From an uncultured Verrucomicrobiales bacterium (lineage in GTDB: Bacteria; Verrucomicrobiota; Verrucomicrobiia; Verrucomicrobiales; DEV007): a stretch of 16,427 nucleotides of DNA. A program made the translations under genes and the position numbers. Location of the stretch: positions 1-16,427 of the forward strand of contig CALKOM010000019.1 of the NCBI GenBank assembly GCA_938091905.1, in the 5' to 3' direction. Below are positions 2,899 to 15,339 of this stretch, piece by piece; within the stretch, counting starts at the first letter, position 1, and every line of letters begins with the position of its first letter. The notes under the pieces are model-generated. The model made no database searches, had not been told where the DNA came from, and saw only the letters and a list, made by a program, of their open reading frames with translations.

Positions 2899-3586
2899 AC
2901 ACTTCTCGCCCTGCGCCAATCCCTCGAAGCATGGCATTTCCACCAAAAGCTCATGGCCGACTGTGACGAGCAGATCACCGAGCACATGAGTGCTCTCGAT
3001 GACCAGGAAGAAGAGCCCTCGCCTCCATCGAACAAGAAGGGTAACAAGGCTCCCGACGAACCGATGCGCCAGCACCTCTTTGCCAAGTTTGGAGTCGATC
3101 TCACCGCCATGGAAGGGGTAGGCATCCAGACCGTTCTGGCGTTCCTGAGCGAAGTCGGCACCGACGTGGGCAAGTTCGCAACCGCGGAACACTTTGGTTC
3201 GTGGCTGGGGCTGTGCCCCGACAATCGCATCACCGGCGGACGCACCCTAGCGTCCCACACCCGCAAGGTCAGCAACCGCAAGGTCAGCAACCGCCTCGCC
3301 ACGGCCCTGCGCATGGCCGCCCAGTCATTTCATCGATCGAAATCCTCTTTGGGTGACTGGTTCCGCCGCATCCGCGCCAAGCTTGGGACCAAAGCCGCCG
3401 TCACCGCCGCCGCACACAAACTGGCCCGCATCCTCTACGCCATGGTCAAACACCGCACCCCCTTCGACTCCGACCGCCTCGGCAATCCCGAACAAAGTCG
3501 CGCAAGAAAAGAGCGCTTCCTGCACGGCCAAGCCGAGCAACTTGGGTTCACCTTGACTCCGGTAGAGGGGGAAGTTTCATAAGAGT
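2899..3586 (+). mobile_element. 5'-truncated IS110-family transposase (Transposase_20 domain only; stop 3580-3582)
   Basis: LLALRQSLEAWHFHQKLMADCDEQI...GVDLTAMEGVG...SEVGTDVGKFATAEHFGSWLGLCPDNRITGG...NRLATALRMAAQS...KAAVTAAAHKLARILYAM. The N-terminal DEDD domain is missing and homology starts right after repeat copy 2. Confidence 0.9.
3261..3294 (+). repeat. 15-bp tandem duplication inside the IS110 ORF (RKVSN x2)
   Basis: CCGCAAGGTCAGCAA CCGCAAGGTCAGCAA CCGC. Confidence 0.95.
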
Positions 3587-4161: not shown

Positions 4162-5982
4162 TCAAGCCTTCAGCGCCCCAACCTCTAGATTGCTGCGGCG
4201 CAGGCGATCGATATTCAGTAGTAGAATGTTGCGCATCACCTTGCCGTGGATCTCAGGAAACTCCTGCTGCAACCGAGACAGGTTGTCGACCGATAGCGTG
4301 TAGCAGGTAATCGCCTCGCCGGCCCAGACATCGGCAGAACGCCTGCTACCATCGACGACGGCGATGTCGCCAAAACAAACGCCGGCGCCGAAGGAACTGA
4401 TTCGACGCTTACTCTCCGAGTCCTCGCCGACGCGATGGAAGATACTCACCGAGCCTTTGGCCAAGAGGTAAATCTCGTCCGGCTTATCGCCCTGCCGGAT
4501 GACGCGCGAACCCGCCTTCAGCCCAACCATTTCCAACATGCCCTCGATCGTCGACAACTCGGCTGCCGTGAGGTCGCGGAACAGGTCGAAGTCGTGAAAC
4601 GGCACCAGCTCATCGACCAGAGGGCGGTCGACATGGGCGGCGATGATTTCATCTTCACAGGCTTCCAGTGCGACATCGAGATCCTTGTAGAATCGCACCC
4701 CGCCCTCGAGCCCGGAAAAGCGTTCGTGATCTACCCGATGGCCCTGGTCGACGATCACCAAGCGTTTACCGGAATCGACCAATTGCTTGGTCATCGACAA
4801 GAGCAGGCCCAACGTGGCCTCATCAAAGAGTCCGACCCGATTGAGATCGAACACGAAGACCTCGGTCTCGTCCGCGCGCTCGGTGGTCGCCCGAATGACT
4901 CGCTCGAGAGCCGAAAAGAAGATGTCCCCCTGCAACTCGATCACTGCGACCACGGCGCCGTGCTCCCGAACCGCGTCGTGATGGACCTTACGACGCTGGC
5001 AACGGGAGCCCACATGCGACAGGTTGTAGATCCGCCGAATGACCTGGTCCGAGATCACTGGCACATTGAAGAGGTGCAAATTAAATCGTCTTGAGAGCTC
5101 ACTGAAGACCCGCATGCCACGCACGCTGTTGCCTTTTGGGTCGAGGCGAGGCGAAAACACCGCCACTCCGAGTTGCCCCGGCAGCACGCCCATCACGCCT
5201 CCACCGACGCCGCTCTTCGCCGGCAGGCCGACAGTGAAGATCCACTCACCGGAGTAGTCATACATGCCACAGGTACTCATCACGCTGAGCACTCGCTCGA
5301 TGTTGGACGACTGAAGCACCCGCTCGCCGGTCAACGGATTGACCCCCCCGTTCGCGAGGCAGGAAGCCATCACCGCAAGATCACGACAGCTCACGAGGAT
5401 GGAACACTGCTTGAAGTAGACCTCGACCGCTTCCTCCACCGGATCGTCGAGCATCTCGAAATTTCGCAACAGGTTGGCGATGGCTCGATTGCGAAAACCT
5501 GTCGTACTTTCCGAACGGTACACTGAATCATCGACCGGCAAATCTCGACCCGCGAAGCGGGAGTAGTGCTCAAGGATCCGACCGAAGCGTTCATCAAAGC
5601 CCTCGCCCGAAACCATCCCCGTCGAAGCGATCGCCCCGGCGTTGATCATTGGATTGAGAGGGCGCCCAGTCTCCGGGTCGAGACTGATCGAATTGAAGGC
5701 TTCACCCGACGGTTCGACACCGATGCGCTTTTCGACGACCTCGATACCGTGCTCGTCCAACACCATGCCATAGGTGAAAGCCTTCGAAATCGACTGGATG
5801 GTGAACTCCTGAAGGGAGTCTCCCACCTGGTAGCAATGCCCATCCGTTGTGAAGACCGAAATGCCAAAGGACTCCGGGTCGACATTGGTCAGTTCCGGAA
5901 TGTAATCCGCAAGTTCGCCTTCTTTGCAGTCCCGGTAGTGCTGGAACAGCTCCTCGATGATTAGTGAAATGGTATTGTCCAT
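4162..5982 (-). CDS. glsA: Glutaminase A fused to STAS-like and cyclic-nucleotide-binding domains (ORF open to 6033; ATG 5982 preferred)
   Basis: Motifs GELADYIPEL, FTIQSISK (catalytic S-x-x-K), VEPSGEAFN, NPMINAGAI, GMYDYSG, PAKSGVGGG, SPRLDxKGNSVRG. Then IELQGDIFF...FVFDLNRV (STAS) and VIRQGD...IYLLAKGSVSI...FGDIAVVDGSRRSADV (cNMP). Confidence 0.95.
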   Translation of the reverse strand: MDNTISLIIEELFQHYRDCKEGELADYIPELTNVDPESFGISVFTTDGHCYQVGDSLQEFTIQSISKAFTYGMVLDEHGIEVVEKRIGVEPSGEAFNSISLDPETGRPLNPMINAGAIASTGMVSGEGFDERFGRILEHYSRFAGRDLPVDDSVYRSESTTGFRNRAIANLLRNFEMLDDPVEEAVEVYFKQCSILVSCRDLAVMASCLANGGVNPLTGERVLQSSNIERVLSVMSTCGMYDYSGEWIFTVGLPAKSGVGGGVMGVLPGQLGVAVFSPRLDPKGNSVRGMRVFSELSRRFNLHLFNVPVISDQVIRRIYNLSHVGSRCQRRKVHHDAVREHGAVVAVIELQGDIFFSALERVIRATTERADETEVFVFDLNRVGLFDEATLGLLLSMTKQLVDSGKRLVIVDQGHRVDHERFSGLEGGVRFYKDLDVALEACEDEIIAAHVDRPLVDELVPFHDFDLFRDLTAAELSTIEGMLEMVGLKAGSRVIRQGDKPDEIYLLAKGSVSIFHRVGEDSESKRRISSFGAGVCFGDIAVVDGSRRSADVWAGEAITCYTLSVDNLSRLQQEFPEIHGKVMRNILLLNIDRLRRSNLEVGALKA

Positions 5983-6069
5983 GCGTCGGCAGGTCTCGGC
6001 TAACAGGGCCATCGGCTTTCCGATTGGGCCCACAACCCACCCCCAGCATGACGGACCTTGCCGTTATCC

Positions 6070-6095
6070 AAAGCACAGAAAGCACAGAAAGCACA
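6070..6095. repeat. 9-bp tandem repeat AAAGCACAG x~3 upstream of glsA
   Basis: Direct reading. Confidence 0.9.
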
Positions 6096-6189
6096 ATTCG
6101 TACCGTACGCCGCTGCCGCCCGGCGACTACTCTTCCTCGAGATCGAGGAAGTCGCTCACCTTCAGCATGTAGCCAACACCGACTGTTCA

Positions 6190-6260
6190 CTGAACCCCCT
6201 CCAATCCCTAGCACAATGCAGCGAATCTGACCCCCTAGACGAAAAGAATTTTCCTAGCAG
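6190..6260. repeat. Dispersed ~70-bp element, copy 3
   Basis: CTGAACCCCCTCCAATCCCTAGCACAATGCAGCGAATCTGACCCCCTAGACGAAAAGAATTTTCCTAGCAG. Confidence 0.9.
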
Positions 6261-6395
6261 TTCGCTATTCCGGATGCGATCGGAGTGCGGCTTGAAATAC
6301 CAGTGGTGTTGCAGGAAGACGGCGGCACCTATTTCGTCGAGGTAAGTAATGCCTCGGGAAGCGATCGTAGTCGAAATATCCGTCTAACGACCACA
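6261..6395 (+). pseudogene. Fragment of an immunoglobulin (I-set-like) domain gene
   Basis: FAIPDAIGVRLEIPVVLQEDGGTYFVEVSNASGSDRSRNIRLT matches the second half of Ig domains (IPGAT..L.I..V...DxGxYxVxVSNxxGS.xS); starts immediately after repeat copy 3. Confidence 0.65.
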
Positions 6396-6534
6396 GCACT
6401 CCCCGTAAGTTTTCCAGATGAAGCACAACCCAAAATTGAACCCTGGCAGGCCCGCTATCGGCAGCTTCGACCGGGTGGATTCAGAGTTGGACATGCGCGG
6501 AACCGTGCCATGGTAGCGCTAGTTTCGCTCGTCC

Positions 6535-7023
6535 ATGCAAGAAATCCCTTACAATCACCAGCGCGGCAACATCCCGGCATCGATATCGATGATCCCCTTG
6601 TTTGCCCAGCTTAAGGAAGCCACTCTCGAGGAACTTCTCGGACACGCCAGCATCGTGCAGCTGGACGCCGGTGAGACCTTCCTCAAAGAAGGTGGGCGGG
6701 CGACAGGGCTGTTCATCATCCTTAAAGGTAAGTTCGAGGTCTCAAAAAACGGGCGAGCCGTGGCCACCCTGGCGAAAGCTGGCGAACTCTTGGGCGAGAT
6801 GAGTTTCATTTTGAACCAACCGCACCAAGCCAACGTCACCGCCAAAAGCCAAGCGACCGTTTTCAAAATCGATTCCCACGTGATGGACGCGCTGCCCGAT
6901 GATCACTACGACCATTTTCAGGGCACGATGTATCGCTACCTCACCAAGCTTCTTGCCGAGCGCTTGATGAAGACCTCGGAGCAGTTGACCAGGTCGCAGT
7001 CCGAGGACATCTACTACCTCTAG
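6535..7023 (+). CDS. Stand-alone cyclic-nucleotide-binding (Crp-like, no HTH) protein
   Basis: IPLFAQL...GETFLKEG...LFIILKGKFEV...GELLGEMSFI...ANVTA followed by a C-helix LAERL; 162 aa, ending before any HTH. Confidence 0.9.
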   Translation: MQEIPYNHQRGNIPASISMIPLFAQLKEATLEELLGHASIVQLDAGETFLKEGGRATGLFIILKGKFEVSKNGRAVATLAKAGELLGEMSFILNQPHQANVTAKSQATVFKIDSHVMDALPDDHYDHFQGTMYRYLTKLLAERLMKTSEQLTRSQSEDIYYL

Positions 7024-7176
7024 ACCCGACGTCGCTTTTCCCTGTGGGACCTGAGCTTTTGTAGGGCTCATCGACTCCCAGCCCGCTCCAACCTGAATAA
7101 AACGTCAGTTAAAGAGGCCAATTTCGGTCGCCAGGTGACTTTTTCTCCCGATGGGTCTACCGTAGGCTCTTCTACC

Positions 7177-9090
7177 ATGGCCTTGCGTCCCGACAGTACC
7201 TCTCATTTTCGAGTGACCGCCCTCCTGCTCCTCGCGCCTGTCTGCAGTGGCCATGAGCTTTCCATAGAAGCTGGCTCAGAGGCCGTCTCCCTTTCTTGGC
7301 AGCCCACATCAATCACACCAGTGGGGCGGACCCCAATCTACCCAGCGTACGAATTGCAGCGCAGTCACGATCTCGCGATCTGGGAAACGGTTCTGAGCAC
7401 CCAAGACAACCCCCTAAAGGCGCCTGCGGAGCGAGTCGAACTCGTCCACGACCTCATTCCAAATGGGCCCACCTTTTTTCGCCTTCGATTCCAGACAACC
7501 TTGATGGGCACCGATCTATCGGGGGCCGATCTTCAAGACAGTCCTTTGGGAGGCATCGATTTTTCGGGCGCCGACTTGGCCGGCGCGGCATTGCAGAACG
7601 CCCGTCTGACGGGTTCCAATCTCACGTCGGTTGACCTTCGCGGGGCGAACCTTGAAGGGGCCGATCTCAGCGAGGCGATCCTCTTCGATGTCCTGATCGA
7701 TGACCAAACGATCATCGACGCCGAAACTCGACGCCGGATTGAAGGAGCCGACGTCGAAACCAGCATCGTGATCAACGAAGTCCGGGCCTCGGGAGATGAT
7801 GAGATCGAGCTCTACAACCGGGGCGGGATCGAGGTCGATCTCTCAGGTTGGCAAATCGCCGATGAGCGCAACGATCCCTACGTGATCCCTGAAGGTTCAA
7901 ACCTTGCGGCTGGCCACTACCTGGTCCTTGTCAAAGGAACGCATCATGCCTTCGGCCTGGGCGGGGCTGATTCCGTGACGCTCCGTTCTCCAAGAAAGAC
8001 GGTGGACCATGTGGTCTGGGCCTCGGGCGCAGCCAACACGTCTTACTGCCGCATCCCCAGCGGTAGCGGAGCGTTTCGGCCCTGCTTCCAGGCGACCATG
8101 GGGGCGCAAAACCTCGACGACCTCACCACGACCATTATCAGTCCCATCTGGATCGCCGGAGGTGTCCAAGGCAGTGCCCGTGGCACCCAATTTGATGAAC
8201 CCAACGAGTTGACCTTTGATCAACAAGGCAACCTTTGGGCGGGCGATGTGGACAACTTGCGCGTGCAAGTTTTCGATGCGGACGGCAACTTCGTAACGGT
8301 TGTTGGTGGAGCTGGCGAAGGTCTTGGCCAATTTGTTGAGCCCTTAACCGGCAAGCAGGGCCCTGAGGCCATTGCGGTGTCGACCGACAATCAGGTCTAC
8401 GTCGTCGATCGCGGCGGCGCCAAGATCAACGTCTACGATGGGGAAGCCTTTTCACCCCTTCGGGAAATCCGAAGCGATCAGTTCATCGACCCGACAGGCC
8501 TCTCCCTTAGCACTGAAGGCATCCTCTACGTCGCCGATCAAGGCAGCGACCAGATTCACCGTGTGGATACCGAGGGCCAGTATCTGGGCGTCCTCCAATT
8601 TTCCCAAGACGACGGTGTCACGCCAGTGCTGGCGAAAACGGAGACGCTGGGATTGGATGAGAGTCGTGATTGGCTCTTTGCCAGTTCAGAGGACGCCTCG
8701 AGAATTGAGATCTTCCAACTCTCGACGGGCTTGTGGACGGGCAACCATTTGGTCGAGTTGCAGTCTGGCAGCGTTCCCGAACCCGGTCGGGTCGTGGACG
8801 ACGTGGAGGGCTTTGCCATCGACACCCTGAATAACTTGGTCTTTGTCTCGGATGAAGACAACGGTCGCATCCTGATTCACAACCTGGATGCCAAAAGCGG
8901 CCTAACGGACCCCGACACCAACTTTGCCTTCCTCAGCGCCTTCGGTAGGTTGGGCAGCCAAGAGGGCGAATTTCTCTCGGCCGACGGGATCGCTGTCATG
9001 CCCGAAACCGATCGGTTGGCCGTTGCCGACCAAGGCAACTATCGCATCCAAGTGTTCAAACTCTCCGACATCATCGCTACCCTTCCATGA
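7177..9090 (+). CDS. Secreted multidomain protein: pentapeptide repeats, lamin-tail domain, NHL/6-bladed beta-propeller (ORF open from 7135)
   Basis: Hydrophobic leader; TDLSG ADLQD...ADLAG AALQN ARLTG SNLTS VDLRG ANLEG ADLSE; IVINEV...DEIELYNRG...VDLSGWQIAD (LTD); FDEPNELTFDQQGNLWAGD...RVQVFD and VADQGNYRIQVF (NHL). Confidence 0.9.
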   Translation: MALRPDSTSHFRVTALLLLAPVCSGHELSIEAGSEAVSLSWQPTSITPVGRTPIYPAYELQRSHDLAIWETVLSTQDNPLKAPAERVELVHDLIPNGPTFFRLRFQTTLMGTDLSGADLQDSPLGGIDFSGADLAGAALQNARLTGSNLTSVDLRGANLEGADLSEAILFDVLIDDQTIIDAETRRRIEGADVETSIVINEVRASGDDEIELYNRGGIEVDLSGWQIADERNDPYVIPEGSNLAAGHYLVLVKGTHHAFGLGGADSVTLRSPRKTVDHVVWASGAANTSYCRIPSGSGAFRPCFQATMGAQNLDDLTTTIISPIWIAGGVQGSARGTQFDEPNELTFDQQGNLWAGDVDNLRVQVFDADGNFVTVVGGAGEGLGQFVEPLTGKQGPEAIAVSTDNQVYVVDRGGAKINVYDGEAFSPLREIRSDQFIDPTGLSLSTEGILYVADQGSDQIHRVDTEGQYLGVLQFSQDDGVTPVLAKTETLGLDESRDWLFASSEDASRIEIFQLSTGLWTGNHLVELQSGSVPEPGRVVDDVEGFAIDTLNNLVFVSDEDNGRILIHNLDAKSGLTDPDTNFAFLSAFGRLGSQEGEFLSADGIAVMPETDRLAVADQGNYRIQVFKLSDIIATLP

Positions 9091-10031
9091 ACCAGCCAAT
9101 CCATCGTCTTACTACCCTTCTCGTTTCGAGCGCGCTCCTACTGGCTAGTTGTGGCCCCAAGAGCAATCCCGACCTCACAAGCACACCTCAAAGCTCGCCG
9201 GATCCCAATACGCCCTCCGCCGAACCCAACCCGGCCCCGAATAGCGAAACCGCGATCGAGCTCAGTTTTGGCGTCTATTCGTCCGATAAACCGACGGAGA
9301 TGATCAAACAGTTCCGCCCTACTCTGGACGCGCTTGAGGCAATCGTGAGTGAGAAGCTGGGCAAGACCCTCGACATCCGCATGGAAGTGGCCGCGACGTA
9401 TGAAACGGGTATTGATAACTTGGTCGACGGTAAGGTCGATCTCTCACAACTGGGACCAGCCTCTTACATCACCGCAAAGAAACGGAACGAAGGGCTCTCG
9501 ATCGTCGCCATCGAGAGCAAGGGAGGCACGAAACAGTTCTCTGGGGTGTTTTGCGTCGCCGAGGCCAGCCCCATTCAATCGGTGAGCGAATTGAAGGGCA
9601 AGACCTTCGCTTTTGGAAGCGAGCTTTCAACCATTGGTCGCTATCTCTCCCAAGAATATCTCATGGATAACGGCGTCAAAGCTTCCGACCTGGGCCGCTA
9701 CGAATACCTTGGGCGCCACGACAAAGTCGGCGCCGCGGTCGGCTTGGGAGCTTACGACGCCGGCGTCCTCAAAGAAGGCACTTTCAAAAAGCTTGTCGCG
9801 GGAGGGACGGAGATTCGAGAGATTGCGCGCTTTCCCAACGTTACCAAACCCTGGGTGGCCCGGGCTGGTCTGGACGAGTCCCTGCATGAGGTGCTGCGAG
9901 CAGCCCTCGTCCAAATGGAAGATAGCGAAGCACTGGAAGCGCTTCGAGTAGACGGATTTCTCGAGGGTGAGGACGCTGATTATGCGCCCATCAGAACATC
10001 CATGGATCGCAACGACGCTTTCTTTCAATAA
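9087..10031 (+). CDS. PhnD-like (phosphate/phosphonate-type) substrate-binding lipoprotein
   Basis: Lipobox LLLAS-C, Pro-rich linker, VDLSQLGPASY, SPIQSVSELKGKTFAFG...STIG, YLGRHDKV...V..G..DAG. ATGA overlap with the upstream gene. Confidence 0.9.
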   Translation: MNQPIHRLTTLLVSSALLLASCGPKSNPDLTSTPQSSPDPNTPSAEPNPAPNSETAIELSFGVYSSDKPTEMIKQFRPTLDALEAIVSEKLGKTLDIRMEVAATYETGIDNLVDGKVDLSQLGPASYITAKKRNEGLSIVAIESKGGTKQFSGVFCVAEASPIQSVSELKGKTFAFGSELSTIGRYLSQEYLMDNGVKASDLGRYEYLGRHDKVGAAVGLGAYDAGVLKEGTFKKLVAGGTEIREIARFPNVTKPWVARAGLDESLHEVLRAALVQMEDSEALEALRVDGFLEGEDADYAPIRTSMDRNDAFFQ

Positions 10032-10084
10032 GGAGCGTTTCTGCTCGGCTCACGCTCCTCAGAGCGTTCTGATCATCAACATAT

Positions 10085-12496
10085 ATGCCCCTTGAGCCTT
10101 TAGAGCCTAGTAAGGAGGAAACCGTGGTTGCTCCTCAGCGCAGCACGACCGTGAATCGGCTCTCGCTGTGGGTCCACGCGGTTGTCATGCTCAGCCTGGC
10201 CATGGTGGTGGTGTCTATCATCGCTGGCCGAATGGTACGCCAAGACGAACAGCGTTACCTGACGGCTACCTTAAAGGAGCAGACCGCTGGCTTGGTCTCG
10301 ATCCTTTCGGCAGTTTCTGTGGACGCCATCATCAGCAGTGACGTCCCCGTCCTGCAAACGATCGTCGAGGCGGTAGCCTCCAAACATGCCAGCATGATCT
10401 CCTTGAACATTTCCAACGCCTCCGGCGGGACACTCCTGGCGTGGGAACGGCCTGGTGTCAATCCCGACGAACGCATCGCTTTTCAAGAACCTGTGATGTT
10501 TGAAGGGGAAAACTTCGGAACCATCGCCGTCCAGTTGGACGCGGAACAGGCATCTCGGCGTATGGACCAGAAAGTGGGTAACATGCGCCTCATCTCTCTC
10601 GGCTCACTTATACTCCTCGGCCTAACCGCACTGGCGTTGGTGAAGTTCTTTTTCTTGCGTCCAGTGGAACACATCGACCAGGGCCTGACTGAGCAGCGCG
10701 AGGGGAAACCCGAGAGCCATGTGCACCTCTCGGGCCTCGCCGCCAAAGAACTGGTCCGCCTGGGAGACTCCGTTAATGCCTTGGGAGTGGCACGACGTGA
10801 ACTCAATCTCTCTCACAAAAAACTCGAACAGTACAACAAGAATCTTGAAGAGCAGGTCGAGCATCGCACGGCAGCCCTGGCGGCAAGCATGGAGGAGGCC
10901 GAACGAGCGAACGAGTCCAAGAGCGAGTTCTTGGCCAAGATGAGCCATGAGCTGCGCACCCCTCTCAACGCCATCATTGGTTACAGCGAGATGCTCCAGG
11001 AAGAGGCAGAGGAAACGGAAGAGGGTGACGTTTTTGTCCCTGACTTGCAGAAGATTAACGGAGCAGGCAAACACCTACTCGGACTCATCAACGACATCCT
11101 CGATCTCTCGAAAGTAGAGTCGGGCCGCATGGACCTTTATCTGGAAGAGTTCGACATCAAAGAGATGGTCGACGATGTCGCGGCAACGGTCTACCCACTC
11201 GTCGAGAAGAACGGCAACCGCTTGGCCATCGATTGTCCAGATTTCGCCAGGCCCATGCGTTCAGACGTCACCAAGATCCGCCAGAACTTGCTCAATCTGT
11301 TGTCCAACGCGAGCAAGTTCACCAAGGACGGCGAGATCCGCCTCGGTGTGCGCATCGATCCTCCTCATAGCGTTGATTCCAACGGGCAAGACACCGAGTC
11401 TCGCATCTCCTTTGTCGTCACGGATTCCGGGATTGGCATGACGAACGAGCAGACCAAAAGGATCTTCGATCCCTTTAGCCAGGCAGATGCGTCCACGACG
11501 CGCACCTACGGCGGCACGGGACTAGGACTGGCCATTACCAAAAAGTTTTGCGACCTGCTTCAGGGAAGCATCGCCGTCCAAAGCGAACTGGGAAAAGGAT
11601 CCACCTTCTCGATGTGCCTACCCTTGCGACTTAGCGATGCCGCTCAAGGGAGCGCCTCGCTCGCGGATAGCCAGGTGCAGCCTCCTGAAACTTCTGCCGA
11701 TGAGTCCAGTGAGAGCGCAACCATGACAAAGGTGCTGGTCATCGACGACGATGCCACAGTCCATGACCTGATGGGCCGCTTCCTCCCAAAGAGAGGCTAC
11801 ACCGTCATCGCAGCTACGAGCGGTGAACAGGGATTGGAAAAGGCCAAACAATGCCAACCCGATATCATCACGCTCGACGTCATGATGCCCGGTGGGATGG
11901 ATGGATGGGCCGTACTCGCCGCCCTGAAATCCGACCAAGACCTCGCGCTCATTCCCGTCATCATGCTCACCATTACTGACAACCGGAACCTTGGCTTTGC
12001 CTTGGGAGCGTCTGACTACCTTGCCAAGCCGGTCGATCGCGATCTCTTAACACGTACACTGCGCAAGTGTCAGGACGAGTTCCAACCCCAACAAGTTCTC
12101 ATCGTGGAAGATGACGCGGCCACGCGAGAATTGCTGAGCCGCTCCATTAAAAAAAGAGGGTGGGAAGTGTTGGAAGCAGAGAATGGCGTGGACGCCATCC
12201 GTCTTCTCGAGGAACATGATCCTAGCCTGGTCTTGCTAGATCTCATCATGCCGCAAATGGACGGTTTCGAGTTCCTCGCCCGCCTCAAAGACCGAAAGGA
12301 AAGCAAGGCCATTCCCGTCATCGTACTCACTTCAAAGGATCTTACCGAAGAGGAACGTAGCCGCTTGAACGGGTCCGTCCAGCGCGTCGTCTTGAAGGGA
12401 TCCCAAGATCATTCCGAAGTCTTGCAAGACCTCAGCCACCTCCTCGCTCAGTGGAGTGAACAAGGCCCTGGAGCATCCGACTCGACGGATGCCTGA
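10085..12496 (+). CDS. Membrane-bound hybrid sensor histidine kinase (TM-periplasmic-TM-HAMP-HisKA-HATPase-REC-REC)
   Basis: Two TM segments; H-box SHELRTPLNAIIG; N-box NLLSNASKFT; G1 DSGIGM; F-box FDPFSQAD; G2 GGTGLGL; REC1 VIDDD..LDVMMP..KP; REC2 IVEDD..LDLIMP. Confidence 0.95.
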   Translation: MPLEPLEPSKEETVVAPQRSTTVNRLSLWVHAVVMLSLAMVVVSIIAGRMVRQDEQRYLTATLKEQTAGLVSILSAVSVDAIISSDVPVLQTIVEAVASKHASMISLNISNASGGTLLAWERPGVNPDERIAFQEPVMFEGENFGTIAVQLDAEQASRRMDQKVGNMRLISLGSLILLGLTALALVKFFFLRPVEHIDQGLTEQREGKPESHVHLSGLAAKELVRLGDSVNALGVARRELNLSHKKLEQYNKNLEEQVEHRTAALAASMEEAERANESKSEFLAKMSHELRTPLNAIIGYSEMLQEEAEETEEGDVFVPDLQKINGAGKHLLGLINDILDLSKVESGRMDLYLEEFDIKEMVDDVAATVYPLVEKNGNRLAIDCPDFARPMRSDVTKIRQNLLNLLSNASKFTKDGEIRLGVRIDPPHSVDSNGQDTESRISFVVTDSGIGMTNEQTKRIFDPFSQADASTTRTYGGTGLGLAITKKFCDLLQGSIAVQSELGKGSTFSMCLPLRLSDAAQGSASLADSQVQPPETSADESSESATMTKVLVIDDDATVHDLMGRFLPKRGYTVIAATSGEQGLEKAKQCQPDIITLDVMMPGGMDGWAVLAALKSDQDLALIPVIMLTITDNRNLGFALGASDYLAKPVDRDLLTRTLRKCQDEFQPQQVLIVEDDAATRELLSRSIKKRGWEVLEAENGVDAIRLLEEHDPSLVLLDLIMPQMDGFEFLARLKDRKESKAIPVIVLTSKDLTEEERSRLNGSVQRVVLKGSQDHSEVLQDLSHLLAQWSEQGPGASDSTDA

Positions 12497-12549
12497 TCGA
12501 ATTTTCAACCATTGAACAGCCCGTTTAGATACCAACCACACATTCGCTG

Positions 12550-12915
12550 ATGAGCAAAATCCTACTGGTGGAAGACAACGAATTGAATCGCGATATGTTA
12601 TCGCGCCGCCTCAAGCGCCGCGATTTTGAAGTCGTCATGGCCTTCGACGGCGAGGAGGGCATCCAGATGGCCTCCGACGAACAGCCCGATCTCATCCTCA
12701 TGGACATGAGCCTGCCCAAAATTGATGGTTGGGAAGCCACACGGACCCTCAAGGCCAACCCGGAGACGGCCTCCATCCCAGTAATCGCGCTTACCGCCCA
12801 CGCCATGAAGGAGGACGAGCAAAAAGCAAGGGATGCCGGTTGCGATGACTACGATACCAAGCCCGTGGATTTTAAACGTTTGCTAGGCAAAGTGAATGCC
12901 TTTCTCAATCCATAA
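12550..12915 (+). CDS. Single-domain response regulator (DivK/CheY-like)
   Basis: ILLVEDN, PDLILMDMSLP, IALTAHAM, DYDTKPVDF; 121 aa. Confidence 0.95.
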   Translation: MSKILLVEDNELNRDMLSRRLKRRDFEVVMAFDGEEGIQMASDEQPDLILMDMSLPKIDGWEATRTLKANPETASIPVIALTAHAMKEDEQKARDAGCDDYDTKPVDFKRLLGKVNAFLNP

Positions 12916-13128
12916 GACTATGGCTAGCCCACCCTATGGGAGTAAAAACGGCGGTCGCCTAGCGGCCAACCGCCCTGCCGTGATATTCTTTGATGGCTTT
13001 CGATGAAGCATCAAGGGAATGGTGATATGGGCGAAGAGCCATGCACCAATCGGCCGGAGTCACATCACCGATAGACTCCACCAAAAAATCTGACGGCAAG
13101 GGCTTCTAATTCAGTCCCCGCTTGTTAA

Positions 13129-13330
13129 CCATTCACACGACCCACCCTTCTCCTCGCTTTCCTGGCCACCATGCTTTCCGTTGCCGTGGCAGAAGATGAC
13201 AAGGAAAAGGCCGCCAAAGAAGAGGCCTTTGACGTTGAGGTGGCGATCACAGGCAACGACCAAATGCAGTTCGACAAGAAAGCCTTCACAGTCGACGCTG
13301 GAAAGAAGGTCAAACTCACCTTCAAGAACA
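13129..13330 (+). pseudogene. N-terminal fragment of an azurin/cupredoxin-like exported protein
   Basis: Signal-like PTLLLAFLATMLSVAVA, then VAITGNDQMQFDKKAFTVDAGKKVKLTFKN (azurin GNDQMQF motif). Cut at 13331 before the copper ligands. Confidence 0.75.
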
Positions 13331-13655
13331 TGATCAAAACCCTGAAGATGAATGCCGTTTCTTCTAGGGAACTTGCCGCGAATATCTGAAGCGTTTGAAG
13401 AGAGAATTTCTCCGGTTGTTTGGCTGCAAGCAAGCTAGCTAAAAAATGCGAATGAAGAAGAAAAAATTTCCCGAGGAAGAGATTATCGCCGTCTTGAAAG
13501 AGGGCGATTCCGGAATAGCGACACCTGAGTTATGCTGTAAACGCGACATCATTGCGGCACCTACTACCGATGGAAGTCGAAGTATGGAGGCACAGAGATC
13601 AGTGACGCCAAGAGGCTCAGGGCCCTTGAGGAAGGGAATTGCCGCCTGCGCAAAG
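13331..13655 (+). mobile_element. IS3-family (IS407-like) remnant: probable left IR plus frameshifted orfA
   Basis: TGATCAAAACCCTGAAGATGAATGCC at the azurin breakpoint. From 13452 it reads MKKKKFPEEEIIAVLKEGDSGIATPELCCKRDI / TYYRWKSKYGGTEISDAKRLRALEEGNCRLRK. No orfB. Confidence 0.85.
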
Positions 13656-13773
13656 CTGAAATCAGCTTTGCGTGGCCAAGAACAACCGATGGGCCTTGAC
13701 GACGGCTACTGATCCAAGCTTGCTTTCACTTGCCAAGCGCGCCCCATGGCCGTTTAAGATAGTCGGCAAGTTC

Positions 13774-15339
13774 ATGTCCGATTCACCCGCCTCTACTTCA
13801 TCGAGCCTCAAGCACGATCTGCGGACGCCGCTCAATCACATCATTGGTTACGGTGAGATGCTCATCGAGGAGCTCGAGGACGGCGACGACACTTCGGGCT
13901 TGGCGCCAGATTTACGCAAGATCCACAGCGCCGGGCGGCGTTTGCTTGGCGTGGTCCACGAGCTATTTGATGAGAGCATTCCGGAGTCGGACCGCCTCAA
14001 TGAAACGCGACTTCACCAGGAAGTACGCACGCCGATCAACCAGATCATCGGCTATGTGGAACTACTCCAGGAGGAGGCCGAGTCCATTGAGGAGGCTTTC
14101 ATGGAAGATCTCGGCAAGATCCATGCAGCCGCCCACCGTCTGCTAGACCTCGTGCTTACCCACTTCGGCGACGGGCGCTTCCCTGTAAGCGCCGCCGAAC
14201 GCGTCGAGCAGCGAGCCCCTACTACTTTTACCACTCGCACCGAAAGTGAGAGTAGCGGCACCCAGCAGGCCCGCCGCCAGGGAGCTCCCTCTGCGGGCCG
14301 ACTCCTGGTAGCCGACGACGATCCCGACAATCGAGAAATGCTGGCCCGGCGCCTTCAGCGCCTCGGCCACGAGGTCGAGACCGTGGCCAATGGTAAGGAT
14401 GTCATCGAGCGCGTGCGCTCAGGCGGCATCGATCTCCTCTTGCTCGACATCGTCATGCCCGAAATGGACGGCTACGCCGTTTTGGATCATCTCCGGATCA
14501 ATCCCCCACCCGACTTCTTGCCCATCATCGTGCTCTCGGCCTCGGACGATTCCTCGCGGGTGGCTAAGTGTATCGAGATGGGTGCCGAGGACTACCTTCC
14601 TAAACCTTTCGATCCCCTTCTCTTGCAGGCGCGCATCGAGTCCAGCCTGGAAAAGAAGCGTTTCCGGGATCGGGAAGCCACCTACCTGAAAACCATCAAG
14701 AAGGAGAAACAGCGGGCCGATGATTTGTTAGCCGTTATCCTCCCCTCCGCCGTGGCAGCCGAACTCAAGATGCGCGGACACGTCAAGCCTCGGCGCATGG
14801 AAAGCGTTTCCGTCCTTTTCACCGACATCGTGGGCTTCACCACCTACTGCGAACACCGCGATCCCGAGACCGTGCATCGCGACCTGCAAGAGTTGGTGGA
14901 GACCATGGAGGACGTGGCCACTGCGCACGGCATGGAGAAGATCAAGACCATTGGCGATGCCTTCCTCGGAGCGTGCGGCCTCCTCACCTTCACCGACAAC
15001 CCCACCCGCGATGCCGTGCAATGCGGTCTCGCCATGATCGAAGGCGCCGAACAACTACTCACTCCGTGGAAGATTCGCGTCGGGGTGAACACCGGTCCCG
15101 TGGTCGCCGGGGTCGTCGGACGGCAAAAGTACCAATACGACATTTGGGGCGACACCGTGAACACCGCCGCACGCATGGAATCGCAGGCCACGCCGGGCAC
15201 TGTCTGCGTCAGCGATGCCACCTACGAGCTCGTGAAGTCAGATTTTAAAGGCAAGTCCCTGGGCACCCCTGAGATCAAGGGCAAGGGCACCATGGAACTG
15301 TTCGAGATCACGGGGATGTCCAATGCGGAACCGTATTAG
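13774..15339 (+). CDS. Class III adenylate cyclase with two N-terminal HisKA/DHp-like repeats and a REC domain (ORF open from 13672)
   Basis: HDLRTPLNHIIGY and QEVRTPINQIIGY; REC LVADDD..LLDIVMP..YLPKPF; cyclase VLFTDIVGFT, KIKTIGDA, GVNTGPVVAGVVG, YDIWGDTVNTAARMES. K and D occupy the ATP-specifying positions. Confidence 0.95.
   Translation: MSDSPASTSSSLKHDLRTPLNHIIGYGEMLIEELEDGDDTSGLAPDLRKIHSAGRRLLGVVHELFDESIPESDRLNETRLHQEVRTPINQIIGYVELLQEEAESIEEAFMEDLGKIHAAAHRLLDLVLTHFGDGRFPVSAAERVEQRAPTTFTTRTESESSGTQQARRQGAPSAGRLLVADDDPDNREMLARRLQRLGHEVETVANGKDVIERVRSGGIDLLLLDIVMPEMDGYAVLDHLRINPPPDFLPIIVLSASDDSSRVAKCIEMGAEDYLPKPFDPLLLQARIESSLEKKRFRDREATYLKTIKKEKQRADDLLAVILPSAVAAELKMRGHVKPRRMESVSVLFTDIVGFTTYCEHRDPETVHRDLQELVETMEDVATAHGMEKIKTIGDAFLGACGLLTFTDNPTRDAVQCGLAMIEGAEQLLTPWKIRVGVNTGPVVAGVVGRQKYQYDIWGDTVNTAARMESQATPGTVCVSDATYELVKSDFKGKSLGTPEIKGKGTMELFEITGMSNAEPY

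Follow-up and report, generated by a model that had tools for sequence, protein, structure and literature searches.

A conserved kinase, receiver and cyclase cassette beside a glutaminase-STAS-cNMP gene in an uncultured Verrucomicrobiales bacterium

The sporulation phosphorelay KinA-Spo0F-Spo0B-Spo0A leads from a kinase through a single-domain receiver and a DHp-type phosphotransferase to a regulator, and phosphotransferases of the Spo0B/ChpT type are stand-alone homodimers with a degenerate ATPase-like domain. Relays of the same type, Pak-SdrG-PhyT-PhyR and kinases-MrrA-PhyK-PhyR, are described in the accessible parts of two papers (PMC5898713, PMC5964349). Here we analyzed a stretch of DNA of 16,427 nucleotides (nt), called the window below, from an uncultured Verrucomicrobiales bacterium (assembly GCA_938091905.1, contig CALKOM010000019.1). 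Its forward strand encodes a binding lipoprotein, a membrane hybrid histidine kinase, a single receiver of 121 amino acids (aa), named RR121, and a receiver-controlled cyclase; a glutaminase gene with STAS and cNMP domains lies divergently beside them. A sequence-only reading had connected these genes into one pathway from binding protein to kinase, phosphorelay, adenylate cyclase and cyclic nucleotide-gated glutaminase. We found that the binding protein, hybrid kinase, RR121 and cyclase very probably form one functional cassette (9087-15339), which is one copy of a widespread and apparently uncharacterised signalling unit. For the whole pathway, in which this phosphorelay cassette produces cyclic AMP (cAMP) that acts post-translationally on the local glutaminase, we estimate a probability of roughly 0.5.

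The cassette has in common with the sporulation and general-stress relays a kinase, a single receiver, a DHp-type module that bears a histidine but is no active kinase, and a receiver-output protein at the end. Like the Spo0B/ChpT type, its candidate phosphotransferase has a DHp-like hairpin with a histidine and no module for ATP-dependent autophosphorylation. However, judging from domain content, this candidate is a tandem of DHp hairpins, two in each chain, with no ATPase-like domain and fused to the terminal regulator, here a REC-cyclase. The kinase also differs in being a hybrid with two REC domains, and the predicted output is cAMP instead of transcription or partner switching. In the CyaC-type cyclase of cyanobacteria, REC, histidine kinase, REC and cyclase follow one another in one polypeptide. 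There, too, a class III cyclase is placed under two-component domains, with an H-box region N-terminal to the REC-cyclase. Unlike CyaC, the window cyclase has no N-terminal REC, and the kinase and the extra receiver are encoded by separate genes. A fused kinase-cyclase of the CyaC type was ruled out, because no HATPase_c domain was found in the cyclase polypeptide at E ≤ 0.01 with Pfam. The guanylate cyclase system GcyB/GcyC of Rhodospirillum centenum was also rejected as a counterpart; in the accessible part of its description the non-catalytic subunits are annotated as hypothetical, with no domain match to the cassette. We found no paper on a DHp-DHp-REC-cyclase cassette in the open literature, subscription journals lying outside the search.

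We searched the six-frame open reading frames (ORFs) of the window, 18 in number, with Pfam and NCBIfam, and both agreed with every domain that the sequence-only reading had assigned. The binding lipoprotein (9087-10031, +) is separated by 53 nt from the hybrid kinase (10085-12496, +; Pfam HisKA, HATPase_c and two REC), the kinase by another 53 nt from RR121 (12550-12915, +; Pfam, a single REC domain), and RR121 by 858 nt from the cyclase (ORF 13672-15339, +; Pfam REC and Guanylate_cyc). As had been noted before, no DNA-binding output domain exists among the 18 ORFs, the sole helix-turn-helix match being a sub-threshold HTH_21 in an insertion sequence (IS) fragment; an Hpt domain was likewise not found in these ORFs with Pfam. 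The kinase consists of a transmembrane helix, a periplasmic loop of ~120 aa, a second transmembrane helix, DHp, ATPase, REC and REC, without Hpt. Its H-box His288 (10946-10948) and its REC Asp are the residues of a phosphorelay hybrid kinase, and the acceptor of RR121 is Asp52.

We then asked how far this arrangement extends, using 80 loci fetched from among the matches listed in a genome scan with the cyclase alignment. These loci show at most 48% identity and come mostly from other phyla, a sample poor for orthologues and good as a test of deep conservation. Twenty-two of them, from several phyla, carry DHp module(s), REC and cyclase and are called family loci below. With phmmer, an RR121 orthologue was found in all but one of these 22 loci (21/22; E 1e-36 to 3e-55), and in the exception, from Planctomycetota (L001), just 2 nt of contig lie upstream of the cyclase. 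A hybrid kinase of the window's family (phmmer, E ≤ 2e-109) adjoins the cyclase locus in 14/22; in addition, a split kinase copy is present in L018 and a truncated REC-REC at the contig edge in L077. Two loci with ample flanks (L012 and L017) have the receiver and no such kinase, and L016 has a weaker kinase only. The RR121 orthologues of Gemmatimonadota, Verrucomicrobiota, Alpha- and Gammaproteobacteria are 59-72% identical to the window's, with a mean column identity of 77%, whereas the DHp region of the same genomes is just 22-33% identical. On S. meliloti pSymB the row reads DUF3365, a 917-aa hybrid kinase, a 121-aa REC and a 520-aa cyclase.

The sensors vary from locus to locus and include Peripla_BP_5/6 (L013), NMT1_3 (L028), H-NOX (L020), CHASE8 (L011) and PAS-GAF (L048), together with Tll0287-like sensors (haem-Cache, DUF3365) in L026, L030, L033 and L039. 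Searches with the window binding protein and with the kinase N-terminus gave 0 phmmer hits each across the 80 loci; the sensor part is not conserved. Between genomes the sensor alone is exchanged, and the linkage of kinase, receiver and cyclase is not accidental. Thus the earlier view of binding protein, hybrid kinase, receiver and REC-cyclase as a unit is borne out by a gene order that recurs across phyla, and the accompanying worry about accidental linkage can be dropped for the kinase-to-cyclase half.

Some related loci deserve mention in their own right. In Pseudaminobacter soli (L020, 7715-12024) an H-NOX (HNOB) gene stands in front of the cassette, which suggests a nitric oxide-to-cAMP version of the relay. 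Four cyanobacterial loci (L006-L009; Microcoleus, Laspinema) combine a 360-aa REC-cyclase that has no DHp modules with an RR121 orthologue (E ~1e-50); in the three from Microcoleus a kinase ORF of more than 1200 aa comes first, then the receiver directly upstream of the cyclase. Because these loci have the receiver without DHp modules, the RR121-type receiver predates the DHp fusion or is more widespread than it. In the Planctomycetota locus a group II intron reverse transcriptase/maturase (L001, 2359-3681, −) lies immediately downstream of the cyclase.

For the window cyclase, the ATG at 13774 is the probable start, since a length of 490-556 aa is shared by 119 of the 120 listed homologues. 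HisKA, REC and cyclase domains are common to all 120, which indicates that this architecture is native; the few with a source name come from Akkermansiaceae, Verrucomicrobiaceae or Verrucomicrobiota. The hallmarks of class III adenylate cyclases are two Asp that bind metal, an Asn and an Arg of the transition state, and a Lys/Asp pair that confers selectivity for ATP. The window cyclase matches PF00211 Guanylate_cyc with 162.7 bits (cut-off 21.9, E 9e-48), which assigns it to class III, and alignment A1, the window included, shows no variation in the metal residues Asp351 and Asp395 or in Lys391, Asp456, Asn463 and Arg467. AC9 and Rv1625c are among its sequence matches in the PDB, which begin at residue 299-307, and Foldseek of the catalytic domain returned 5o5l (E 8e-20, TM-score (target) 0.81). 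The catalytic domain (340-515), which with its linker helix (281-322) covers 14614-15339 (+; Pfam, stop codon included), resembles Rv1625c-type class IIIa cyclases. These features predict a class IIIa adenylate cyclase that produces cAMP. The receiver (14299-14613, +; Pfam, alignment and model) scored 95.6 bits and keeps the acceptor Asp225, Ser255 and Lys277, all invariant, as expected of a terminal receiver. The full-length model contains four helices, a disordered linker, REC, a 42-residue helix and the catalytic domain; ~40 residues predicted to be disordered lie between DHp module 2 and REC, and residues 136-170 form a low-confidence linker.

The N-terminus of the cyclase holds two HisKA (DHp) stretches. 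Module 1 (13789-13965, +; Pfam HisKA and model) comprises helices 6-36 and 44-64, and module 2 (14002-14166, +; Pfam HisKA and alignment) helices 77-101 and 107-131. They are 49% and 48% identical, respectively, to the DHp of the neighbouring kinase, and in a PDB search their profile matches the DHp domains of HK853, GacS/RetS and DivL. For phosphate to reach a terminal receiver, a hybrid kinase depends on a second histidine. The phosphorelay of the sequence-only reading was right about the hybrid kinase and the terminal receiver but named no second histidine, for which the tandem DHp modules are the candidate. Because the cassette has DHp modules and no Hpt, we propose a route from His288 to a receiver Asp, to His14 and to Asp225. 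The sensor, here the PhnD/PtxB-like lipoprotein, would report to the periplasmic loop of the kinase, which would autophosphorylate on His288. The phosphoryl group would move to a receiver Asp, either Asp52 of RR121 or one in the kinase's own REC, then to His14, the only H-box histidine left in the ATPase-less DHp bundle of the cyclase, and then to Asp225. The state of Asp225 would act through the long linker helix on the dimeric class IIIa catalytic domain, and the resulting cAMP would be read post-translationally by the glutaminase-STAS-cNMP protein. Whether the DHp module is in fact a built-in histidine phosphotransferase is, on sequence grounds, an evenly balanced question.

The H-box residues bear on this step. 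His14 of module 1 is encoded at 13813-13815, and the corresponding residue of module 2 is Gln82 (14017-14019), where 33 of the 35 other A1 sequences have His. We tabulated this position in 53 sequences (36 in A1 and 18 in A2, with the window counted once). Both modules have the histidine in 36 sequences, module 1 only in three (the window with Gln82, two others with Arg) and module 2 only in 14 (11 with Gln, one with Tyr, two without module 1); a sequence with neither was not found (0/53). This pattern, in which one histidine is enough and none is never seen, fits two hairpins that work as one phosphate-carrying bundle. For residues 1-131, AlphaFold2 predicted four long helices (pLDDT 81, pTM 0.70).

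However, several observations weigh against the proposed transfer. The window cyclase itself has lost the histidine of module 2, the four-helix bundle was predicted for a monomer, a setting biased towards intramolecular packing, and Foldseek of the DHp model gave no hit at E ≤ 0.001. Its best matches were generic up-down four-helix bundles at E 0.02, and thus no specific fold link to Hpt or Spo0B emerged. Moreover, the kinase could phosphorylate the cyclase REC directly, with no second histidine. The DHp modules would then carry no phosphate and would serve as a docking or phosphatase surface. DivL and RetS, both matched by the DHp profile, work by DHp contacts and not by kinase activity. In the docking variant, phosphorylated RR121 would bind the DHp and be an allosteric regulator of the cyclase, in the way that DivK~P acts on the pseudokinase DivL, and the extreme conservation of RR121 fits such a multi-partner binder. 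In the phosphatase variant, the modules would dephosphorylate the cyclase's own receiver; H-box E/D-x-x-T is a phosphatase motif, and its Thr is kept in both window modules. That one module is without His in 17/53 sequences, through Gln, Arg, Tyr or module loss, also agrees with a surface of this kind. On the other hand, a pure docking surface would not be expected to keep at least one histidine in all 53 sequences, and the cassette has no other histidine to accept phosphate from the kinase REC domains. We regard a docking or phosphatase role as less likely than phosphotransfer, but as a serious competitor.

The 858 nt between RR121 and the cyclase (12916-13773, no strand) contain gene fragments with weak partial Pfam matches and have a lower G+C content, with a dip to 0.51. 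The IS debris formerly seen between receiver and cyclase amounts to such matches, one IS3-orfA-like (13446-13712; HTH_Tnp_1, E 0.054) and one cupredoxin-like (13138-13389; E 0.002). Elsewhere the receiver abuts or overlaps the cyclase where both share a strand and the spacing was read. Since only the sensor changes between genomes, the spacer is better explained as a later insertion than as a sign of accidental linkage, and it is probably a secondary insertion into an ancestral operon that split the receiver from the cyclase. It nevertheless counts against a working relay that 858 nt of probable debris cut the cyclase off from the operon. The pathway could be broken in this genome, the insertion having uncoupled the cyclase and the change from His to Gln in module 2 being decay; the fragment-like ORFs, the G+C dip and the rarity of Gln82 in A1 would all suit this explanation. 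But the cyclase has an intact ORF with none of the invariant catalytic and receiver residues lost, His14 is retained, and a 521-aa public protein that is 99% identical to the window cyclase represents 18 member sequences. A broken pathway thus seems very unlikely to us.

The input of the window copy is a lipoprotein that matches PF12974 Phosphonate-bd (E 1.6e-48) and that begins with what looks like a lipoprotein signal, a lipobox cysteine being its last residue. It belongs to this broad Pfam family only, since it scored 100.1 against the PhnD cut-off of 261.1 (TIGR03431) and 98.9 against the cut-off of 112.05 for the Pi/phosphite/phosphonate subfamily (TIGR01098). The extracellular phosphorus or oxyanion cue that had been suggested, and with it a link from phosphorus to nitrogen, is unsupported, as the protein falls below both NCBIfam cut-offs. 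Its nearest solved relatives, with phosphonate or phosphite as ligand, are the phosphonate-binding protein 5jvb (1.9e-22) and PtxB, and more distant ones are ArrX (3.4e-6) and an AioX-like protein (6e-5).

The description as an orphan binding protein agrees with our scan, in which no ABC permease or ATPase was found among the 18 ORFs with Pfam. An exported binding protein that adjoins a kinase without ABC genes is the layout of AioX/AioS. AioX and ArrX are periplasmic binding proteins that stand at the start of a signalling system, according to the accessible part of one paper (PMC5908839). Because these relatives start kinase pathways, a role of the binding protein as co-sensor is well precedented, and we propose the transporter-less lipoprotein as a candidate co-sensor of the kinase. 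In AioX/AioS, ArrX, TorT/TorS and LuxP/LuxQ a periplasmic binding protein is likewise the co-sensor of a kinase, here encoded directly upstream. The best NCBIfam match of the kinase is TorS (330 bits, well under the cut-off of 676.5), and the binding protein resembles AioX/ArrX only weakly (E 1e-4 to 3e-6). The AioX/AioS-type systems end in a transcription factor, whereas the output in our case is a cyclase.

For the last step, the closest precedents are cAMP-regulated enzymes with a cNMP domain, namely the mycobacterial cNMP-GNAT acetyltransferase and the cAMP-sensing EAL phosphodiesterase Bd1971 of Bdellovibrio, as given in the accessible parts of two papers (PMC10187061, PMC6717892). The window enzyme similarly has a cNMP domain fused to an enzyme, so that the messenger would act post-translationally; unlike them, the enzyme is a glutaminase, and a STAS domain stands between the catalytic and cNMP domains. 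No relevant paper on a cNMP-domain glutaminase was found within the same open literature. The gene (4162-6033, −; Glutaminase, STAS and cNMP_binding in Pfam and NCBIfam) is an ORF of 623 aa, with a likely start at M8 (6012) that gives 616 aa, and a database protein of 616 aa is 100% identical to it. Pfam Glutaminase gave E 3e-121, and TIGR03814 gave 369.8 against a cut-off of 255.4, which makes the protein a glutaminase A. The Ser-x-x-Lys catalytic motif is present, in a region that aligns with the glutaminase of Tropicimonas aquimaris discussed below. A functional cNMP domain has a phosphate-binding cassette with Gly-Glu/Asp and Arg-Ser/Thr-Ala. The window glutaminase has this canonical form (Gly-Asp...Arg-Ser-Ala), and the Tropicimonas cassette follows the rule as well.

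Verrucomicrobiales keep the three-domain glutaminase, with 30 close matches at 48-59% identity over the regulatory half. The family is diverse (at least 25 clusters at 50% identity); among the sampled representatives of ~600 aa, Glutaminase and cNMP_binding occurred together in 25/25, and a Pfam STAS match was also present in 17/25. The STAS-cNMP module is fused to SulP transporters, too (5/5 sampled proteins of ~740 aa). As further observations, the module stands at the end of SulP-family transporters in proteins P0193, P0204, P0222, P0225, P0244, P0233 and P0310, and two STAS-cNMP SulP proteins have an N-terminal MCP signalling domain. No solved structure spanning more than one part of glutaminase-STAS-cNMP was found, and in a tblastn search of the glutaminase against plasmids 0 of the 370 matching records covered ≥80% of the query, with no three-domain form among them.

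We next considered whether this glutaminase is the output of this cyclase. In Tropicimonas aquimaris (L033), whose phylum and sensor differ from those of the window, glutaminase-STAS-cNMP, a Tll0287-like protein, kinase, RR121 and cyclase follow in this order on one strand, and the glutaminase lies 69 nt upstream of the cassette. The two glutaminases are collinear, with the same three domains and 44% identity over 604 aa, and the Tropicimonas gene is the only glutaminase ORF of any kind in the 1.25 Mb of fetched DNA. This recurrence is thin but striking, and by rough reasoning chance is unlikely to have produced it, although it is a single case. The neighbourhood check called for earlier, on recurrent linkage of the three-domain glutaminase with the kinase and cyclase, thus gave 1/80 fetched loci. 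The earlier claim that cAMP tunes the glutaminase gains from the canonical phosphate-binding cassette and this co-location, and it loses from the other 21 family loci, in whose fetched DNA no glutaminase was found.

The distribution therefore speaks against a dedicated link, with a glutaminase in 1/22 family loci and 1/80 overall. Within the fetched DNA a cNMP-domain gene of any kind is found in only 3/22 family loci (L033, L040, L017), and the window glutaminase gene runs on the opposite strand, separated from the first operon gene by 501 nt that include a dispersed repeat. These facts may be explained by a real cassette whose neighbour is not its dedicated output, adjacency having arisen from rearrangement near remnants of mobile elements and the cNMP domain reading the cell's general cyclic-nucleotide pool or another ligand. 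The divergent orientation, the three copies of the repeat, one of them in the intergenic region, and the IS110 and IS3 fragments elsewhere in the window would fit this, as would the wide occurrence of glutaminase-STAS-cNMP on its own and of STAS-cNMP on SulP transporters. However, it does not easily account for the same three-domain enzyme standing 69 nt from the same cassette, on the same strand, in another phylum, as the sole glutaminase fetched. We regard mere adjacency as a possible explanation, though not the one we favour. We infer that the divergently encoded glutaminase-STAS-cNMP protein is the most plausible local cAMP receptor, and only tentatively, at somewhat less than even odds, that it is the output of this cyclase. 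The strongest form of the claim, in which the DHp hairpins make a pseudo-dimeric histidine phosphotransferase bundle and cAMP is wired to a gated glutaminase in at least two distant lineages, is quite unlikely to hold in full.

A cNMP-domain gene, other outputs included, occurs in 11 of the 80 fetched REC-cyclase loci, and local pairing of cyclase and receptor thus appears common, with the receptor variable. In L040 a POPDC-like ORF of 229 aa (8165-8851) begins directly past the cyclase ORF. Stand-alone cNMP proteins of 175-193 aa and MscS-type channels whose C-terminus is a cNMP domain adjoin other REC-cyclases, the stand-alone proteins being found beside betaproteobacterial cyclases. Besides that of L040, cNMP genes lie at 9332-9856 in L046, 11117-11695 in L047, 862-2457 in L053, 10759-12291 in L078 and 1-1542 in L017.

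The window has a second cNMP protein, of 162 aa (6535-7023, +; Pfam, sole domain cNMP_binding), whose gene is the first of the forward-strand operon. Both of the cNMP domains announced earlier exist, but the 162-aa protein lacks the phosphate-binding Arg, its non-canonical cassette having His in that place. Four homologues were found, all of 162 aa, with His at this position in three and Pro in the fourth. Because the Arg is replaced, the protein is a doubtful nucleotide binder. The next gene, 111 nt downstream, encodes a 651-aa protein with pentapeptide repeats, a lamin-tail domain and an NHL propeller (7135-9090, +; Pfam), and its end overlaps the start of the binding-protein gene by 4 nt. 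From its signal-peptide-like N-terminus the 651-aa protein is probably exported, and it may be a further periplasmic sensor component. An SGL propeller gene is located ~1.5 kb upstream of the kinase of L048.

The dispersed repeat of ~75 nt has three same-strand copies (180-262, 2816-2898 and 6191-6261, +), which match the reference copy at 74-83% identity across the aligned families D2/D5 and have dissimilar flanks. Copy 3, which had been reported to lie between the parts of the pathway, is real according to repeat search and alignment. Copy 1 overlaps an IS3-like HTH_21 fragment (182-517, −; sub-threshold, E 3.4e-4), and copy 2 lies just upstream of a truncated IS110-family transposase (2953-3582, +), of which only the C-terminal part is present (model positions 201-343 of 343). 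The repeat has no Rfam match and may be a miniature inverted-repeat transposable element or a solo IS end; a fourth copy near 13300-13600 was not backed by alignment. The G+C content of the window is 0.48-0.50 left of ~2500 and 0.55-0.61 further right. Scans of the window for promoters (2 promoter-like sites against 3.3 expected) and terminators (8 terminator-like sites against 10.8 expected) were uninformative, and Rfam and tRNA scans gave no matches. A 408-aa ORF (1286-2512, +) has a CBM9-like carbohydrate-binding domain (E 3e-8) and is apparently unrelated to the signalling genes.

Phosphorelays and cAMP signalling are both textbook systems, and the cassette would connect them in a new way, by a relay that is based on DHp modules and has no Hpt. 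Its H-NOX, haem-Cache and binding-protein inputs suggest a general adaptor from any signal to cAMP, and because it is also present on S. meliloti pSymB, it is directly testable in model rhizobia. To our knowledge, few cNMP-gated bacterial enzymes are known so far, and glutaminase-STAS-cNMP proteins are, in the open literature searched, a diverse and unstudied enzyme family. If the link to the glutaminase is true, a central enzyme of nitrogen metabolism would be under post-translational control by bacterial cAMP, and an extracellular cue would tune glutamine hydrolysis within seconds without a transcription factor.

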